This document shows, in pieces, positions 28,122-41,285 of a stretch of DNA of 57,342 bases (its first letter is position 1; every line of letters starts with the position of its first letter). A program made the translations under genes and the position numbers. Location: contig JAYVOP010000235.1 in NCBI GenBank assembly GCA_043757865.1, positions 1 to 57,342 on the forward strand, read 5' to 3'. Under the pieces are notes generated by a model. It did not search any database and had not been told where the DNA came from. It saw only the letters and a list, made by a program, of their open reading frames with translations. The DNA comes from Verrucomicrobiales bacterium (GTDB lineage Bacteria; Verrucomicrobiota; Verrucomicrobiia; Verrucomicrobiales; V1-33).

Positions 28122-29324
28122 TCAAGAAATCGGGGTGGGTGAACAGAATTGGGAGACCCAAACGGGCAGAGAAATGGCTGCAATAAGAGCCGCAAAAATC
28201 CCCGCTGTGGGAGCGAATCCGAGGGCGGTCGTCAGCAGGCCAGCCAGCGGATAGGTCAGCCCCCAGCCCGCATGACTCAGGGCAAAATGAGCCGCGTAAA
28301 CATGAGATCGCTCCGCGCCATCGCTATTGGCTGCGAGCAGCTCGCTGCCCCGGATGCCTAGAATACTGTAACTCATGCCGATGAACCACCACGCGATGCA
28401 GAGCGTGATGAACTGAGGCATTACCGCCACGGAGATCAAGGCTGCCAGCATGACAGGAGCACAAGCGGTGACGGAAACATTCCTCCAGCATGGTGGAAAT
28501 TTGCCGTAGAGTAATGCCGCACAGACAGAGCCAATTCCAAACGCTGCCATTACCCAAGCGTAGTCGGAATCGCTCCGGTGGAGGTCGTTTTTGACGAAAT
28601 CCACCGTGGCCACTATCACGAATGCCCCGCCAATGCTCGTCTGAAATGCGAGGAAAAGAGACTCCCGCAATGGTGCCCGCTGGAACATAGCGGCCAGACC
28701 GTGCCGCACCGACGTAGGGGCTTTCTTCTCCGCCGTGGTGACTTCAATCGCCAGACGCGGCAGCCCAAAAAGCAAGGCGGCACTGGCCAAGAAGGTGAAG
28801 GCATCCACCACGAAATTTCCTCGAAACCCCACCATCGCGATGACCAATGCCGCCAACGATGGCCCGAGGATGTTAGCGGCATCGTAGGCCACGGAGCCGA
28901 CCGCCAAGGCTTTGGGATATTGCTCTGCGCTGACCACGCCGGGGATCACGGCACGATAAATGGGCGTGAAGATGGCGGAGCCAAAATTTAACAACACCGC
29001 CAGCCCATAAATCTGCCAAACGGAATCCGCAAAAAAGAACCCGATCACCACCGCTGCGCGCATCAGGTCCGCAGCCACCATCAACCGGCGTGCCCCGTAG
29101 TGATCCGCTAATTTCCCTGCCCACGGAGAGCAGAAGACAATGACCACAATGCGAATGGCCAACGTAATGCCCAACACTGTGGACGCCGAAGCGCCTACCA
29201 ACTGATGCGCCAACAACCCCAACGCCAGCGAGGAAAGACCACTGCCCACTAGGCTCAACGCATGAGCCCAGAAAAGCTGCTGAAACGCCCGATGACGCCA
29301 GAGTGAGTGAGATGGAGTATTCAT
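28122..29324 (-). CDS. nreB: MFS transporter, NreB-like (nickel/cobalt resistance type)
   Basis: About 12 TM segments. ..F..LF.A....LVG.GL...ALGLLA..L.G..A..VLG..LAI, AIFTP...A.IP, AYD....GP.LAA and R...YAA.FALSHA.W..TYPLAG match NreB-type sequences; located in a metal efflux operon. Confidence 0.75.
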   Translation of the reverse strand: MNTPSHSLWRHRAFQQLFWAHALSLVGSGLSSLALGLLAHQLVGASASTVLGITLAIRIVVIVFCSPWAGKLADHYGARRLMVAADLMRAAVVIGFFFADSVWQIYGLAVLLNFGSAIFTPIYRAVIPGVVSAEQYPKALAVGSVAYDAANILGPSLAALVIAMVGFRGNFVVDAFTFLASAALLFGLPRLAIEVTTAEKKAPTSVRHGLAAMFQRAPLRESLFLAFQTSIGGAFVIVATVDFVKNDLHRSDSDYAWVMAAFGIGSVCAALLYGKFPPCWRNVSVTACAPVMLAALISVAVMPQFITLCIAWWFIGMSYSILGIRGSELLAANSDGAERSHVYAAHFALSHAGWGLTYPLAGLLTTALGFAPTAGIFAALIAAISLPVWVSQFCSPTPIS

Positions 29325-32300
29325 GGTGCGGCTGTGGTTAGGGGTGTGGCAGTGCGTTCTTTTTCAAACCAATCATACAACAACGGCAACAGCACTAACG
29401 TGAGGAAGGTGGAACTGAGGATACCGCCGATGACTACGGTGGCCAGCGGGCGTTGCACTTCAGCTCCGGCTCCAGTGGCGATGGCCATGGGGACGAAGCC
29501 GAGGCTCGCAACGAGTGCTGTCATAAGCACGGGGCGCAGGCGGGTGAGGGAGCCTTCTAGCACGGCCTCGCGCTTGCTGCGGCCTTCTTCGCGCAGTTGA
29601 TTGAAGTAGGAAATCATCATCAGGCCATTGAGCACAGCCACACCACTCAACGCAATAAATCCCACCGCCGCTGTAATGCTGAAAGGCATGTCCCGCAGCC
29701 ACAGCGCGCCCACTCCTCCAGTAACGGCTAGAGGGATGCCGCTGTAAATGATAGCCGCCTGCCGCAAGCTACTGAAGGCGATGAAGATAAGGATGAAGAT
29801 GAGCACTAGGGCCGTGGGCACCACGATGGCAAGCCGTTGACGCGCCTGTTGCAGGTTTTCAAACTGGCCTCCGAATTGCACGATGTAGCCTTCCGGCAAT
29901 TTCACTTCGGCTTTGATGCGGGCCTCAGCTTCGTTGACGTAGCCTTCCACATCGCGTCCGCCCAGGTTCACCATCAGCGCAGCGCGGCGTTGGCCGTCGT
30001 CGCGTTGGATGGGTTCCACCACTTTGATGGTTTTGAAATCTACCACTTTGCCAAATGGCACCATGCCATGTTCGCCCACACGCAGGGGCAGTTGCTTGAT
30101 TTGCTCATCGTCGGCTCGCAGGGATTCGGGCATTTTGACGAGGATGTCGCGACGGCGGTTGCCATCGTAGGCGGCACCCACCACTTCACCGGCTAGGGCG
30201 GCGGTTACGGCTCCATTTACTTCAGCGCCTTGCAGGTTGTAGCGTTGCAGGGCATCGCGCTTGGCCGTGATTTCTAGCTGTGGAGTGCGACCATCGGTCT
30301 CAAATTCGACTTGAGCCGCACCGGGCGTGGATTCTAAAATACCTTTGACTTGCTCGCCCAGTTTTTCCAATTCGTCGTAGTCGTTACCATAAATTTTCAC
30401 AGCAATCTCGGCCTTGGTGCCCTCCAGCATTTCGTTGAATCGCATCTCGATGGGTTGCGCAAAAAGAATGTCGTATTCCGGATTCAGTTTCTTGAGTTCC
30501 GCTTCGATCTGTTCGCGCAGTTCCGCTTTATTGGCCGGGCGTCCGGCGGTTTTGGGCCATTCGTCCATGGGCTTGTAAAAGATGTAAACATCGCTCTCGT
30601 TGGGCGGCATGGGATCGGAGGCGATGGCGCTGGTGCCAATCCGTGAGAAGATGCGGGTAATCTCGGGAAATGCTTTCAATAACATGTTTTCCACTTCAAT
30701 GTCCGTCTTCAATGACTCCTCCATGCTCATGCCCACGGGCTTGTAGAGCATGGAGGTGATGGAGCCCTCATCCAACTTGGGCACAAAGTTAGCGCCCAAG
30801 TGATTGAATAACATCACCGACCCCGCAAACAGCGCGACGGCTCCGGCAGCCACGAGCCAGCGCAGCCTGAGGGCGAGGTGCAGCACTGGTTCATAGACGC
30901 TCTTGGCGGCACGGATGGCGAAATTATCTTTCTCCGAAATCTTCCCGCGCAAGAGGAACGAACAGAGCACGGGCATGAGGGTGAGCGAAAGCAGCAATGC
31001 CCCGGTGAGCGCTAGCATAACGGTGATGGCCATGGGGTGAAACATTTTACCCTCAATGCCAGTGAGAGCGAGGATGGGAATGTAAACAATGGTGATGATG
31101 AGCACGCCAAAGAACATAGGACTGCCCACCTGTTTGCTAGCGGCTAGCACGGTGTGGTTCCGTTCCTCGAATGTGAGCGTGCGCCCGAGTTGGTGTTGTT
31201 TATGAGCCAACTGGCGGACGATATTTTCCACCATGACCACCGCACCATCGATAATGAGTCCGAAGTCCACCGCCCCCAGTGACATCAGGTTTCCCGACAC
31301 TCCACCTTTGAGCATTCCGGTGAGGGCGAACAGAAACGAGAGTGGAATGGCACATGCGACAATGAGGGCCGCGCGGACATTTCCTAGCAAGAGCATAAGC
31401 ACAGCGACGACGAGCACCGCACCTTCAAAGAGGTTTTTTTTCACAGTGCCAGTGGTGCGATCGATCAAAAGCGAACGGTCATACTGGCCTTGGATTTCCA
31501 CGCCTTCTGGGAGCTTGGTTTGAATCTCCGCGATACGCTTTTTGACCCGCCCTGCCACCTCGCGGCTGTTCTCGCCAGCGAGCATGAGAGTGGTGCCGAT
31601 AATGGTTTCTTGGCCATTGAGCGTGGCCGCTCCGGTGCGGAATTTGGTGCCGATCTTTACCTCCGCCACATCCTTTACTAGCAACGGCTGCACGGCGGAG
31701 CCGAACTTGATAGGGAGATTTGCTAACTCCTCCACGGTGGTGACACGGGTGATGGCGCGGATGGTGAGTTGCTCCCCCTCACGGCTGACGATGCCCCCGC
31801 CTGCGTTCTCCACGTTCTTGGCTATGAGTGCAGACAGCTCGCTAAAGGTCAGCCCCGCGTTGGTCAGAGCCTCTGGCTTGGGCTCGATGATGAACTGTTT
31901 CACATAGCCGCCCGTGCCGTTGATCTCAGCAATCCCAGGCACGGTGCGCAAAAGTGGCTTAATGACGTATTCCTGAATTTCGCTGAGTTCGATGAGTTGA
32001 TCCAGCTCCTGCGCAGGCTTGTGCTGGGCATCGGCACGGTAGCTAACGGAATAGTAAAAAATTTCACCCAAGCCAGTGCTGATGGGAGCTAGCTTTGGCG
32101 AGGTGCCGGGAGGAAGCTGATCCAGCACGCCTTGCAGGCGCTCTGCCACCAGTTGTCGGCAGCGATAGATGTCCGCGTCATCATCAAAATCTAGCGTGAC
32201 CTGCGAGAGGCCAAACTTTGTCAGCGATCTCATTTCCCGCACGCCCGGCAGGCCCGCTAGTTCCATTTCAATGGGGCGGGTGACGAGTTTTTCGGATTCT

Positions 32301-32476
32301 TCCCCAGCCAGCGCGGCCACCTCGGTATTGATCTGCACCTGCACGCCAGTAATGTCCGGCACGGCATCGATGGGCAGATGCACCGCCGACCACAGGCCCG
32401 CTCCTAGCAGCCCTACCGCCATCAGCAGCACTAGCGCACGCTGGCGGAGTGAAAATTCAAGGATCTGGTTAATCAT
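29321..32476 (-). CDS. czcA: CusA/CzcA family heavy-metal efflux RND transporter (CzcA-like)
   Basis: LPIDAVPDIT.VQVQINT, RS.TKFGLSQVT, LAPISTGLGEI, NLMSLGAVDFGLIIDGAVVMVEN, RLRPVLMTALVASLGFVPMA..TG.GAEVQRPLATVVIGG motifs; 1051 aa. Confidence 0.93.
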   Translation of the reverse strand: MINQILEFSLRQRALVLLMAVGLLGAGLWSAVHLPIDAVPDITGVQVQINTEVAALAGEESEKLVTRPIEMELAGLPGVREMRSLTKFGLSQVTLDFDDDADIYRCRQLVAERLQGVLDQLPPGTSPKLAPISTGLGEIFYYSVSYRADAQHKPAQELDQLIELSEIQEYVIKPLLRTVPGIAEINGTGGYVKQFIIEPKPEALTNAGLTFSELSALIAKNVENAGGGIVSREGEQLTIRAITRVTTVEELANLPIKFGSAVQPLLVKDVAEVKIGTKFRTGAATLNGQETIIGTTLMLAGENSREVAGRVKKRIAEIQTKLPEGVEIQGQYDRSLLIDRTTGTVKKNLFEGAVLVVAVLMLLLGNVRAALIVACAIPLSFLFALTGMLKGGVSGNLMSLGAVDFGLIIDGAVVMVENIVRQLAHKQHQLGRTLTFEERNHTVLAASKQVGSPMFFGVLIITIVYIPILALTGIEGKMFHPMAITVMLALTGALLLSLTLMPVLCSFLLRGKISEKDNFAIRAAKSVYEPVLHLALRLRWLVAAGAVALFAGSVMLFNHLGANFVPKLDEGSITSMLYKPVGMSMEESLKTDIEVENMLLKAFPEITRIFSRIGTSAIASDPMPPNESDVYIFYKPMDEWPKTAGRPANKAELREQIEAELKKLNPEYDILFAQPIEMRFNEMLEGTKAEIAVKIYGNDYDELEKLGEQVKGILESTPGAAQVEFETDGRTPQLEITAKRDALQRYNLQGAEVNGAVTAALAGEVVGAAYDGNRRRDILVKMPESLRADDEQIKQLPLRVGEHGMVPFGKVVDFKTIKVVEPIQRDDGQRRAALMVNLGGRDVEGYVNEAEARIKAEVKLPEGYIVQFGGQFENLQQARQRLAIVVPTALVLIFILIFIAFSSLRQAAIIYSGIPLAVTGGVGALWLRDMPFSITAAVGFIALSGVAVLNGLMMISYFNQLREEGRSKREAVLEGSLTRLRPVLMTALVASLGFVPMAIATGAGAEVQRPLATVVIGGILSSTFLTLVLLPLLYDWFEKERTATPLTTAAP

Positions 32477-33717
32477 TTCGCGAAGGCCTTTCCGGTTAGC
32501 AATTCTAGTTGTTGGCGATGTTCAAACGCATCCGCTTGAGCCCCGAACATGGCGTCCAGCGCATCCAGGTAGGACCGCTGCATCTCCATATAGATGGCCA
32601 CTGGCACCGCACCTAGCCGATAGTGGCGATCTGCCAATTCTGCGGCCTCACGGAATCGGGCCACGGTGTCCGGCTGCCAGGCGGAGATTTCCTCTAGCAG
32701 CTTACGGTAGGCAGCGGCACGGGTGGCTACTTCGCGCTCCAACTCACGTTTGGTCATGCCCAGGGCGGCCTCCGCCTGCATCTGGCGGGCTTTGGCGGCA
32801 TCTATGTTGCCCTCATTTTTATGCCACAGCGGCAACGGAATGGACAAGCTGAGGCCGATCTCCGTCTGCTTATCACTGGCCTTTTCCCCCGCTACATACG
32901 GAGCCACGGTCACGCTGGGCATCCGTTCGTTTTCCGTCAGGCGCACCGCAAACCCTTGTTGGTTCAGCTCCACCACACGCCGCCGCACTGCGAAATTTTG
33001 TTTCCACGCAGAGGTTAGAAGCACGCCGTCGTTGGGCGCGGGCGGCAGGGCCACCTTGGGCGTTGCGATCTCCACAGCGCTGTCCAATGGCTGGCCGGTG
33101 AGTTGATTCAACTCCACCCGCGCCTTCTGCAACTCCTGCGCGGCTTGGCTGGCGCGACGCGTGAGAGACAACACGTTGGCCTCCAAAATGCGGGCCTCTA
33201 ACTGCGGCGTTGGCCCGGTGTCATCGCGTTGCACCAGCACGGAGAGCACTTCTTGGAACCGCTTGGCTGCGGCCTTGGCAGCAGTTTCTTTTTCTTGCGA
33301 GGCAGCAACCAGAAACGCCAGTGACCGCACCTTGGCCGAGAGCGCTGTTTTGAATTCATCCAGCCCCAGTTCTGCCAGATCAATCTGGCGATCCGCCACC
33401 GCCTTGCGCAACGCCAACCGCCCCGGCCACTCGAATATCTGCGAAACCGAAACGGACCACGCGGCCCCATTGCCCAGCCCCGCGCCATTCAAGTCCCGCA
33501 CCCGCTTGCCGCCGCCCTGCACGGCCACATCGGGATTGGCGATTTGCCCAGCGGTCTTGCGACCGCCTCTGGCAGCAGCGATCTCAGCCTCGAAGTAGGC
33601 GATCTCAGGATTTTTGGCGACCGCCTGAGCGGCCAGAGCATCGAGCGATAACGGCTCGGCACTCAACGATGCCATGGAAATAATTAGCGAAAAGGTAGTA
33701 AGAAATTGGAAATTCAT
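32473..33717 (-). CDS. TolC-family outer membrane factor (CzcC-like)
   Basis: A...NPEI, ANP.V, EWPGRLALR, LSIPLPLWHKNEGNI..A.A and Y.LG......Y...QR motifs. Probable start is ATG 33717 (MNFQFLTT signal peptide), not 33894. Confidence 0.9.
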   Translation of the reverse strand: MNFQFLTTFSLIISMASLSAEPLSLDALAAQAVAKNPEIAYFEAEIAAARGGRKTAGQIANPDVAVQGGGKRVRDLNGAGLGNGAAWSVSVSQIFEWPGRLALRKAVADRQIDLAELGLDEFKTALSAKVRSLAFLVAASQEKETAAKAAAKRFQEVLSVLVQRDDTGPTPQLEARILEANVLSLTRRASQAAQELQKARVELNQLTGQPLDSAVEIATPKVALPPAPNDGVLLTSAWKQNFAVRRRVVELNQQGFAVRLTENERMPSVTVAPYVAGEKASDKQTEIGLSLSIPLPLWHKNEGNIDAAKARQMQAEAALGMTKRELEREVATRAAAYRKLLEEISAWQPDTVARFREAAELADRHYRLGAVPVAIYMEMQRSYLDALDAMFGAQADAFEHRQQLELLTGKAFAK

Positions 33718-33839
33718 AAAGATAGGATGGATAGGAAATAGTGGGTGCCCCGCGACAGGCTGGAGCAATCCCAAGAAAACAATGCCCCACGCTGCGAGCA
33801 ACGCAGCGCACCTGGACACGAAACCGAACGGTCTCCCTT

Positions 33840-34346
33840 CTATACCATCATCACCGTGGCCCGCAGGATGCGGTGCCAAGCCAACGGATCCCAAGGCGGC
33901 GGACGGCCCGCCACGCCACGGTCAATGCCCTCACCCATGCAAGTGAGCGGCATTTCATTGCTATGAATATACGAAACCTCTACGCACGCGGCCACAGTGA
34001 AGACCACTGCCGTCGGCTCCCAAGAAGATAATTTTGAACTGCCCAACGCCAAAACATGATCAGGGTGAGCATGCACAGTGGAGAGACTGGCAATGATCGT
34101 GGAATCCTCCTCGTCATCATCCTCTGCGTCGTGATCAGAGTCTTCGTGAAAATGATCCTTCACTGAATGGCTCAGCGTCACCACCAAAAAATCCCCATTT
34201 GCCACCACACGCATCGCGTGGTGATGCCCATCATGATCCCACATTCCTGCCCCGCCCTGCATCAACCACTGGACACCCAGCAGTTGCGAACAAATCGCCA
34301 TGAAGACGACGAGGCAGGTTAGCAATTTTTTGATAGGAGAAAACAT
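33840..34346 (-). CDS. His/acidic-rich membrane-targeted leader protein upstream of efflux operon 1
   Basis: N-terminal TM, HDGHHH, HFHEDSDHDAEDDDEED and HAHPDH, ending GRPPPW...LRATVMMV. Confidence 0.7.
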   Translation of the reverse strand: MFSPIKKLLTCLVVFMAICSQLLGVQWLMQGGAGMWDHDGHHHAMRVVANGDFLVVTLSHSVKDHFHEDSDHDAEDDDEEDSTIIASLSTVHAHPDHVLALGSSKLSSWEPTAVVFTVAACVEVSYIHSNEMPLTCMGEGIDRGVAGRPPPWDPLAWHRILRATVMMV

Positions 34347-34523
34347 AGGGGAGAAAACTAGGTGGAATCAGGTGATGAGCCTGCCCTGGACACATATCAA
34401 GCAGGACGGCCTCCGTATTTGCAAATTATAAATTTTTTTGCCCACAATTAGTCGGGCGCGCCACCCGCAGTGCCACCCTCGCTGACGGCAGCGCGGGGGC
34501 AGGAGGAGCGCTATACTCAAAGA

Positions 34524-35078
34524 TTACTTCTGCTTGGCATCCTTAGCATTCTTGCTGTGATCGTGGCCATCCCCTTCTTTGTGCTCTTCTTCATCTCCGT
34601 GGGCACAGGTGCAGTTGTATTCTTGCAGGCTGCAAGTCGGGCATTTGCTGAGGTTGAGGTTGAACTTTTCATTCACAGCCTTGGCCTTGGCGTCGGTTTT
34701 GATCTGAACCACGATGGGATAGTCGTTGCCCTCGGGGATGACTTTATCGGACATCAATTTGTCGCCCTCCTTGGTGAAAGTAAGTTTGGTAGGGTTGCTA
34801 CGGTCGCCTAGAGTCACGCTGATGACTTGGGCGGCTGGTGCCACTACTTTGTTGTCGTCGTCCACAAATCGGATTTCGATTTTCTTGTCTTTGGTGACGA
34901 GAAATTCGACGTGCGGCTCGACGGCGGTGATGAGACGGCCACCAGTGGGTCCGGCTTTCTTAGCAGCATGTTCGTGATCGTGCTTTTCTTCTTTGGCCGG
35001 GGCTTTTTTATTTTGGGCGTAGCTGGGGGTGAGGCTCAGTGCGAAGCCGAGCAGGGTGAGGGCGAATATGGTTTTCAT
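34524..35078 (-). CDS. secreted His-rich putative metal-binding protein
   Basis: Signal peptide, HDHEH followed by GPTGGRL...PHVE, C-terminal CPTC...CTCAH...HKEGDGHDH; last gene of efflux operon 2. Confidence 0.78.
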   Translation of the reverse strand: MKTIFALTLLGFALSLTPSYAQNKKAPAKEEKHDHEHAAKKAGPTGGRLITAVEPHVEFLVTKDKKIEIRFVDDDNKVVAPAAQVISVTLGDRSNPTKLTFTKEGDKLMSDKVIPEGNDYPIVVQIKTDAKAKAVNEKFNLNLSKCPTCSLQEYNCTCAHGDEEEHKEGDGHDHSKNAKDAKQK

Positions 35079-40709: not shown

Positions 40710-40820
40710 GAAAATGAAGTGGTTGGGTGATGGAATGTCGGCACGGCCAAGCCGTGAATTTTCGACATCAGGAAATCGGCATCACCCTTTCCGGGTGATA
40801 AGGCCGTGCTTTCACATCGC

Positions 40821-41285
40821 TCAAACCAACATCACGATCGTCTGTGCCACGAGCTGTGACATCGGCGGGCTCCCATATTCAGGAGGCTCCAGCAGACCAA
40901 TGCACGGGCACTGTAATGCCAGCATCTCACTGAAATCTGGCATTTCATAAGTTACGGGCAAATCGAACAAGGCCGGCGGGGGCAGCGACAACGCGGGCGG
41001 GAAACTGGTGACGACCAGCGATTTTCTCAGCTCAGTATGCTTGTGATCATCGTGCCCACCTTGAAGTGGGGTTTGCTGGCTCTCGCCTGCGGAAGTGGCA
41101 ACATTTCCACCAAATCTGCACTCATGGGCATCGTGGGAATGACACTCCGAAGCAGCACAATCCGCCTTCTCCACCCTCTCGCCCGTGCATCCGCAAAGAA
41201 AACCAGCCCTCAAGCCCACAACCTGTCCCAGCCCGACCGCAATCACGGTCAGACAAATCAACAAGCATTTGACGATTTTGGGCAT
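40821..41285 (-). CDS. Cys/His-rich membrane-targeted leader protein upstream of efflux operon 2
   Basis: Probable start ATG 41285. N-terminal TM, CGC..C...CHSHDAHEC, HDDHKH, Pro-rich segment, ending GSPP...AQTIVMLV. Confidence 0.7.
   Translation of the reverse strand: MPKIVKCLLICLTVIAVGLGQVVGLRAGFLCGCTGERVEKADCAASECHSHDAHECRFGGNVATSAGESQQTPLQGGHDDHKHTELRKSLVVTSFPPALSLPPPALFDLPVTYEMPDFSEMLALQCPCIGLLEPPEYGSPPMSQLVAQTIVMLV

Follow-up and report, generated by a model that had tools for sequence, protein, structure and literature searches.

Experimental evidence for metal-sensing leader peptides exists only for two copper systems, both of Proteobacteria (PMC9973294, PMC9426467). In a survey of 2023, OEP and resistance-nodulation-division (RND) transporter genes were the commonest neighbours of CutF-like genes, CutF-like clusters with only His as ligand were linked to Ni/Co, and almost nothing was found outside Pseudomonadota and Bacteroidota (PMC9973294). 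Here, we consider a stretch of 57,342 nucleotides (nt) from a Verrucomicrobiales bacterium (GenBank assembly GCA_043757865.1, contig JAYVOP010000235.1, positions 1 to 57,342), named below the window, in which an open reading frame (ORF) of 168 amino acids (aa) on the minus strand precedes a heavy-metal efflux operon composed of OEP, CzcA-type RND and major facilitator superfamily (MFS) genes (operon 1). From sequence comparison it is proposed, with moderate confidence, that this ORF is a cis-acting metal-sensing leader of the CutF/CruR kind for the OEP-CzcA-MFS operon; its export, metal binding, ribosome stalling and regulatory output are what we infer for it. The ORF and its parts are the following.

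33840..34346, minus strand: leader ORF, 168 aa and a TAG stop (homologues and alignments)
34257..34346, minus strand: residues 1-30, KK and a hydrophobic helix, predicted export signal or signal anchor (AlphaFold2 (AF2) helix 3-30; family pattern)
34218..34241, minus strand: WDHDGHHH, residues 36-43, first His cluster, H43 invariant (alignments)
34167..34175, minus strand: LSH, residues 58-60, predicted end of a beta-hairpin, H60 invariant (alignments, AF2)
34053..34073, minus strand: HAHPDHV, residues 92-98, last ligand motif, H97-V98 invariant, 51 residues before R148 (alignments)
33891..33905, minus strand: RPPPW, residues 148-152, with R, P150 and P151 invariant (alignments; synonymous codon variation)
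33843..33866, minus strand: LRATVMMV, residues 161-168, C-terminal octapeptide conserved at the amino-acid level (alignments, codon comparison)

The frame runs uninterrupted from ATG to TAG over 168 codons. It begins with MFSPIKKLLTCLVVFMAICSQLLG, basic and then hydrophobic, and in the alignments every family member has K/R followed by about 20 hydrophobic residues. Three His clusters (HDGHHH at 38-43, HFHEDSDHD at 65-73 and HAHPDH at 92-97) precede a C-terminal part with GRPPPW at residues 147-152 and the last residues LRATVMMV. An earlier note on this DNA had listed the 168-aa length, the N-terminal hydrophobic helix, the His clusters and both C-terminal motifs, as well as a gap of 122 nt to the TolC start, and all of them are there; the stop codon extends to 33840, and OEP begins with its ATG at 33717. 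The AF2 model, calculated from a 10-sequence alignment, consists of the N-terminal helix, a beta-hairpin at 41-60 and one strand (mean predicted local distance difference test score, pLDDT, 46.6), and has no compact fold; residues 102-168 score a pLDDT of about 30-40. Two other readings of the protein were rejected: that of a lipoprotein, as the Cys of the signal region is not conserved, and, by inspection, that of a PEP-CTERM-like sorting signal, the tail having neither a transmembrane stretch nor a terminal basic cluster.

Pfam (to E<=1) and NCBIfam scans of the leader gave nothing credible, and its relatives are rare. Word-indexed and exhaustive HMMER searches yielded a handful of them among billions of proteins; the exhaustive search, over 1.8 billion representatives, found only 4 real ones. 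Six-frame searches of 401 Verrucomicrobiales genomes gave credible copies in 6, from 4 genera and 2 families, and a peptide-pattern scan of metagenome contigs found no relative. With a profile built from distant members the family comes to about 19 clusters, from metagenomes and metagenome-assembled genomes of uncultured Verrucomicrobiales, none of them annotated. The ORF is open in all homologues. Invariant in the family are H43, H60, H97-V98, R148, P150-P151 and T164, and nearly invariant are P149, L161 and V168, with one RLPP exception to RPPP; the conservation of RxPP and of the tail that the earlier note had proposed to look for is thus present. The invariant ligands are H43, H60 and H97, and there is no conserved Cys and no CXXC. 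In each of the 10 members measured, 49-52 residues separate the last His motif (HV) from the R of RPPP, and 19-20 residues separate this R from the C-terminus, and the sequence between these fixed distances is barely alignable. Counted from the C-terminus, the Pro motif is 17-20 residues away; in the window the final Pro of RPPP is the 18th residue from the end. Across the family, the tail Arg (-7) is encoded by five codons (CGG, CGT, CGC, CGA, AGG) and the tail Thr by ACG, ACC and ACT. As the conserved residues of the tail and RPPP are written in varying codons, selection acts on the peptide.

The remainder of the protein drifts rapidly. In the five closest loci, identity is 42% for the leader protein and 80% for the first 100 OEP residues, and the rate of evolution of the leader body is about 3 times that of the OEP next to it. 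In nucleotides, identity in these loci is 54% for the leader body, 70% for its last 75 nt, 63% for the spacer, which thus exceeds the leader body, and 77% for the OEP start. By sequence comparison the leader ORF is a real gene, beyond chance, because it is open with invariant residues in homologues and because its synteny with OEP is conserved. Its fast drift, the small number of invariant residues, the ruler-like spacings and the lack of a compact fold together resemble the pattern described for CruR and CutF, and such a pattern would be less expected of a structural protein.

The resemblance does not extend to membership in DUF2946, with which the earlier note had compared the leader: PF11162 (gathering score 23.7 bits) does not match it at E<=1, it has no CXXC, and hhalign of the leader alignment against 7 Verrucomicrobiota DUF2946 proteins gives a probability of 0.2%, where only AARPPP aligns with xxRAPP. 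A six-frame PF11162 search of the window's own genome gave one sub-threshold match, on another contig. Of the traits of DUF2946-type leaders, the modelled N-terminal hydrophobic segment and the position as first gene of an operon with a long intergenic region are found; CXXC/CxxxC and RAPP/PPP 2-3 residues before the C-terminus are not. With its Pro motif 17-20 residues from the end instead of 2-3, the leader departs from the C-terminal geometry of CutF and CruR, and it fails the survey's filter of PP among the last 15 residues. Above-cut-off DUF2946 proteins (CxxC, then RAPP/RGPP 2-7 residues from the end) were found in 5 of 301 Verrucomicrobiota genomes (L025-L032); genes of the CruR/CutF type are therefore present but rare in this phylum. 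Neither this nor the earlier bioinformatic description of the class upstream of OEP/RND genes (PMC9973294) agrees with the view that such a sensor was undescribed.

What is conserved besides the peptide is the operon that follows it.

32473..33717, minus strand: OEP (TolC-like) gene, first pump gene (Pfam OEP, 9.4e-32)
29321..32476, minus strand: CusA/CzcA-family heavy-metal RND transporter (TIGR00914, 1219 bits against a cut-off of 701)
28122..29324, minus strand: MFS transporter (family scans)

The RND start overlaps the OEP stop, and the MFS start overlaps the RND stop. An OEP gene on the same strand lies directly downstream of the leader in 12 of the 13 loci with enough DNA, at a distance of 111-154 nt, and a CusA/CzcA-family RND gene comes next after it. 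The linkage of homologues to metal transport genes and the place of the leader at the head of an RND efflux operon, both put forward in the earlier note, are borne out by this: it is the conserved first gene before a CusA/CzcA-type RND gene, with a structured spacer between. In the thirteenth locus (L034, 4210-10103), the leader heads a MacAB-like ATP-binding cassette (ABC) efflux cluster (adaptor, ABC ATPase, FtsX/MacB permeases), also with a terminator-like hairpin 3' of it. An RcnA-family transporter is among the accessory genes of two relatives (scored for L018) and an MFS exporter is in the window; these accessory genes point to Ni/Co. The earlier note had also stated that no MerR, ArsR or two-component regulator is encoded here. 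No such domain was found in the ORFs scanned at 20.6-50.4 kb (about 13 kb on either side), nor was such a regulator gene found around the L001 homologue; since several scanned ORFs are without any Pfam match, the negative is only partial.

In the window, OEP and CzcA overlap without a membrane-fusion (adaptor) gene between them (28122-33717), and the same is seen in L001, L018 and L033; the recurrence of this layout behind the same leader family in three other genomes shows that it is no accident of assembly. The adaptor is present in L017 and L019. In L019 (4143-7458), leader, OEP, adaptor and RND come immediately after a 722-aa ORF, which by eye is multicopper-oxidase/CopB-like in its C-terminal sequence, and a small protein judged Cys-rich by eye, and an RcnA-like gene follows; the cluster looks like a composite metal-resistance island. 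In L013, the RND gene is followed by a 167-aa ORF that has no relation to the leader.

The 122 nt between leader and OEP, together with the last leader codons, contain the following elements.

33718..33839, minus strand: structured spacer from leader to OEP, 122 nt (folding z = -2.5; alignment)
33820..33835, minus strand: hairpin HP0, GAGACC-GUUC-GGUUUC (folding; in the five closest loci, two pairs differ on both sides)
33782..33819, minus strand: hairpin HP1, GC-rich, 15 base pairs (bp) with a 3-nt bulge (terminator scan, folding)
33773..33781, minus strand: U-rich tract UGUUUUCUU directly after HP1 (terminator scan)
33746..33767, minus strand: hairpin HP2 (95% of cells paired among the five closest loci)
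33845..33855, minus strand: 5' strand of a long-range helix, last codons G-GUG-AUG-AUG-G (five-locus alignment, pair counts)
33718..33730, minus strand: 3' strand of this helix, in the G-free, C/U-rich OEP start region (five-locus alignment, pair counts, modelling)

The cgctgcg/cgcagcg arms that the earlier note had placed at 33790-33808 are there and form the core of the 15-bp stem of HP1, the closing pair of which shows one G-C to C-G flip among relatives. Together with UGUUUUCUU, HP1 is intrinsic-terminator-like. The spacer folds better than its shuffles in most loci, with z of about -4 in L007, L008 and L009 and of -1.5 to -4.4 in the loci of the adjacent operon 2, described below. In the spacer alignment of the five closest loci, 87% of cells are paired in the common structure against 36-53% with slid partners, and 4 pairs change on both sides. 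Its outer helix pairs the last leader codons (ACG GUG AUG AUG GUx) with bases 5-20 nt upstream of the OEP AUG, and in L005 the change of a leader AUG to UUG is matched by a change of CCAUC to CCAAC in the start region. A hairpin with a U tract begins 14-23 nt after the leader stop in the window, L006-L009 and L033-L035; in the distant subfamilies a strong hairpin with a U5-U6 tract begins 14-18 nt 3' of the stop. The hairpins of L006-L009 and L033-L035 are stronger than that of the window, and those of L005, L021 and L022 are weak. No promoter was detected behind the terminator-like hairpin in the loci scanned (window, L006, L007, L008), and Rfam covariance models, including the NiCo/czcD riboswitch, gave no match at E<=1 over 33500-34700.

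Masking of a Shine-Dalgarno sequence was considered for the OEP start and rejected. Among 1771 long ORFs of the genome, GGAG/GAGG is found at -18..-4 in 6.4%, compared with 8.5% in control windows, and start regions are poor in G and rich in C (46% have C at -1). As the genome is without Shine-Dalgarno enrichment, "SD shielding" here means the masking of an unstructured start region.

Ribosome footprints were modelled as bases constrained to be unpaired. The energy required to open the OEP start, in free RNA and with a ribosome at the leader stop, changes as follows (kcal/mol).

L005: from 11.2 to 2.0
L021: from 6.6 to 1.4
L022: from 8.7 to 4.5
L024: from 7.8 to 2.8
Window: from 3.2 to 1.5
L006-L009: from 2.4-3.6 to 1.7-2.8
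Operon-2 family: from 8.9-15.4 to 3.0-5.4

A ribosome at the stop thus lowers the opening energy by 4-9 kcal/mol in L005, L021, L022 and L024, and the opening of a start-masking stem by a leader-end ribosome is clear in these four, weak in the window and absent in L006-L009. With a ribosome at PPP, the start region of most loci is still closed or more closed. By geometry, the responsive position in this modelling would be the end of the leader ORF and not RPPP, because it takes a ribosome at the last codons to cover the pairing strand and to stand next to the hairpin.

In the proposed mechanism, the leader would be translated and then inserted or exported by means of its N-terminal helix, and the His clusters of the nascent chain would sense a divalent metal, probably Ni/Co/Zn. 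It is assumed that the 21-residue C-terminal module (RPPP, 12-13 residues, LRxTVxxV and stop) sets the arrival and the dwell of the ribosome at the last codons. A ribosome located there would cover the strand that pairs with the OEP start and adjoin the terminator-like hairpin, so that leader translation would set initiation of pump synthesis and probably also transcriptional read-through. Two variants can be considered. In sub-model (a), a pause at RPPP, upstream of the RNA switch, would be relieved by the force arising as metal binds to the exported His segment about 51 residues behind it; the ribosomes set free would move on to the tail, open the OEP start and keep pace with the polymerase, and metal would induce the pump. 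In sub-model (b), the whole 21-residue module would be an arrest or slow-termination peptide acting at the stop codon. The latter better explains the exact spacing of 19-20 residues and the conservation up to the last residue, and the spacing of 49-52 residues, close to the 45 of CruR, favours sub-model (a). An alternative role of the hydrophobic tail, by analogy, would be that of a degron for a periplasmic C-terminal protease. SecM, for comparison, is degraded after export (a C-terminal protease degron).

Several results weigh against a metal-sensing leader. The predicted disorder is weak evidence because of the shallow AF2 alignment of 10 sequences, and a conserved beta-hairpin and extreme C-terminus in 168 aa would suit a functional small protein equally well. 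RPPP is 17-20 residues from the C-terminus, and a ribosome pausing there is out of reach of the hairpin and of the OEP start, which does not fit the geometry of CutF and CruR. The covariation in the spacer comes from 5 sequences only, from which the structure itself was derived. The helix between tail and start region is weak in the window (3.2 kcal/mol, duplex z = +0.7) and absent in the distant subfamilies, and the test of a duplex between leader end and OEP start was not significant for the window or L006-L009. In 6 loci, the RNA freed by a ribosome at PPP did not pair consistently with the terminator's 5' arm; of the traits of a trp-type attenuator, the intrinsic terminator-like hairpin is present and a mutually exclusive antiterminator was not found, which leaves the effect of translation on termination unexplained. 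In the run search, only DNA runs (sediment metagenomes) held this sequence, and no RNA-seq or metatranscriptome run did. Of the co-translational sensor for the RND operon suggested by the earlier note, the conservation pattern of a regulatory leader and the CruR-like spacing remain, and a role of an RPPP-paused ribosome at the RNA elements does not.

The main rival reading, possible although rather unlikely in our judgement, is that the leader is a small periplasmic or membrane-anchored metal-binding accessory protein, e.g., a CzcI-like modulator, a metallochaperone or a partner docking by its tail, in which case the hairpin or terminator would set stoichiometry (much small protein, little pump) and the tail helix would be ordinary translational coupling. 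The length of 168 aa is large for a leader, and the conserved beta-hairpin-like segment with an invariant His would suit a protein, but the leader body evolves about 3 times as fast as OEP and has no compact fold in AF2. The extreme C-terminus is conserved in amino acids even where RNA pairing is lacking; however, the fixed distances from ligand to PPP and from PPP to the end, kept over unalignable sequence, suggest a ruler and not a fold. In distant subfamilies a strong terminator follows the gene directly, as would be expected of an independently expressed small gene, yet no promoter was detected behind the terminator, and the spacer is better conserved than most of the leader's coding part. 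The operons of the window, L001, L018 and L033, lacking an adaptor gene, leave room for an unusual component, but operons that contain the adaptor have the same leader. CzcI of Cupriavidus, cited as a protein-level regulator upstream of czcCBA, would be a precedent.

We consider improbable the earlier note's mechanism in a literal form, in which a ribosome arrested at RPPP in the manner of CutF or SecM would open the spacer hairpin or expose the TolC start. The motif is invariant bar one RLPP, PPP is a strong pause dependent on elongation factor P and the stall site of CutF, and the distance of 49-52 residues from ligand to PPP resembles the 45 of CruR. However, 51-57 nt separate the PPP codons from the stop, and about 75 nt separate them from the hairpin, whereas a footprint reaches only about 15 nt downstream; the modelled ribosome at PPP leaves most starts closed, or closes them further, and no alternative pairing was found between the freed RNA and the hairpin. 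It would also leave unaccounted for the 17 conserved residues after PPP, while the motif of CutF and CruR is 2-3 residues from the end. A membrane signalling component (anti-sigma-like or another transducer) acting on a regulator encoded elsewhere would agree with a predicted single-pass protein with a periplasmic His-rich sensor part and with the failure to find a local regulator, but is highly improbable given a cytoplasmic part of only about 7 residues, no partner gene in any locus and no family match.

Upstream of the leader the following was noted.

34425..34430, minus strand: TATAAT hexamer with an A7 run before it, candidate -10 box for the promoter of operon 1 (perfect match by reading the sequence)

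The hexamer is 79 nt upstream of the leader ATG and is weak evidence for a promoter, as the region is not conserved between loci and could not be aligned; a sigma-70 scan detected no full promoter upstream of the leader. Operon 2 is followed by a GC-rich inverted repeat (about 34455-34500), which together with the hexamer looks like a terminator-promoter junction between the two operons. The last gene of operon 2 (34524-35078, minus strand) encodes a secreted protein of 184 aa that is rich in His at its ends and contains a CPTC...CTC motif; it matched nothing in Pfam or NCBIfam, and an orthologue is at the same position in L013 (P0021).

This adjacent OEP-CzcB-CzcA operon is headed by a second leader-like ORF (40821-41285, minus strand), with Cys/His ligands and the ending PPEYGSPPMSQLVAQTIVMLV. 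Its N-terminal helix is similar to that of the first leader, and no other frame of 60 aa or more in the 4.7-Mb genome shares with these two ORFs the ending T-(I/V)-V-[ML]-x-[VI]. In its family the corresponding spacings are 52-53 residues in most members (9 of the 10 with the motif scored) and exactly 20 to the C-terminus. The SPPM of the operon-2 leader lies 13-14 residues from the end, and it would pass the survey's filter of PP within 15 C-terminal residues. In hhalign the two families match only N-terminally, with 42% probability, and homology between them is therefore not established. The operon-2 family has 11 clusters, and the spacer in the window (40710-40820) has two hairpins. A helix from the stop-codon region to the OEP start co-varies between L013, L015 and L016, and a ribosome at the stop cuts the opening energy of the start by 4-12.5 kcal/mol in this family. 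In the same three relatives, the module (leader, OEP, CzcB, CzcA, periplasmic His protein) adjoins ParA/RPA replication or integrase/D5 primase genes, and it therefore appears to travel on plasmid-like or integrative elements.

A further proposal embraces both families and is put forward as doubtful: RPPP or PPEYG, a fixed 19-20 residues and T-(I)-V-[ML]-x-[VI]-stop would form a hitherto unknown arrest or slow-termination peptide, occupying the exit tunnel of a ribosome at the stop codon, or a pause upstream of an RNA switch where metal-driven release turns the pump on. His- and Cys-type sensors would then be interchangeable on one output module, wired by lineage to a start-masking helix or to an intrinsic terminator. 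If the leader reading is true, metal-sensing leaders would be extended to Verrucomicrobiota, to sensing of the His type (probably Ni/Co/Zn) and to direct control of an RND pump. The distinct geometry, with the Pro motif 20 codons from the stop, a conserved tail and a helix or terminator as output, would show that sensing and output parts are modular and have arisen more than once, and pump operons, some on mobile DNA, would regulate themselves without a regulator gene. A class of "hypothetical proteins" would then have to be read in annotation as cis-regulatory elements.

Of the known systems, CutF of Rhodobacter capsulatus (cutFOG) is, like the leader, the first gene of a metal-detoxification operon (PMC9973294, bioRxiv 10.1101/2025.02.05.636593). 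Both would have an N-terminal export signal and ligands in the exported part, as predicted for the leader, and a C-terminal PPP; in CutF, as in the modelling of leader relatives, a leader-end stem masks the next start and a leader-end ribosome opens it. However, the ligands of CutF are CxxxC and those of the leader only His, with no detectable sequence homology; its PPP is 2 residues from the C-terminus, in contrast to 17-20 residues and a conserved LRxTVxxV tail, and it precedes a multicopper oxidase in place of a CzcA-type RND pump. Unlike CutF, the leader is followed by a spacer that also holds a terminator-like hairpin, and its host genome shows no use of Shine-Dalgarno sequences. CruR (Bp2923) of Bordetella pertussis, a DUF2946 protein, is likewise a uORF-like first gene, with a spacer of 162 nt against 122 nt (PMC9426467). 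Its spacing from ligand to Pro (CXXC-RAPP) is 45 residues against 49-52, both proteins are predicted to be poorly structured, and its output, transcription termination, would fit the terminator-like hairpin at the leader. CruR has CXXC, RAPP three residues from the end and Rho, and represses an uptake system (PMC9426467); the leader is without CXXC, has RPPP at -20 and an intrinsic-terminator-like hairpin, and belongs to an efflux pump that is expected to be metal-induced. By description, the His-only CutF-like clusters 14 and 17 (Ozturk 2023) are also His-rich, with HupE/UreJ as Ni/Co context where the leader has RcnA-like and MFS genes, and CzcI (cluster 20, Ozturk 2023), again compared by description, is located upstream of czcCBA.

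SecM, VemP and MifM would share with the leader, as proposed here, an exported nascent chain, an arrest module occupying about 17-20 residues of the exit tunnel and an RNA helix that controls the downstream gene, but they sense the secretion machinery where the leader would sense a metal, and there is no sequence resemblance. In pyrE/pyrBI attenuation of E. coli, the ORF ends shortly before an intrinsic terminator without an antiterminator, and read-through depends on the closeness of the ribosome to the polymerase. At the leader, 14-23 nt separate the stop from the hairpin, and a metal would take the place of the nucleotide pool as signal; this likeness is purely inferential. As the survey already has OEP/RND neighbours and His-only clusters, a leader before an RND pump is not new as an idea; what are new here are the leader family, the phylum, the ligand set and the geometry.

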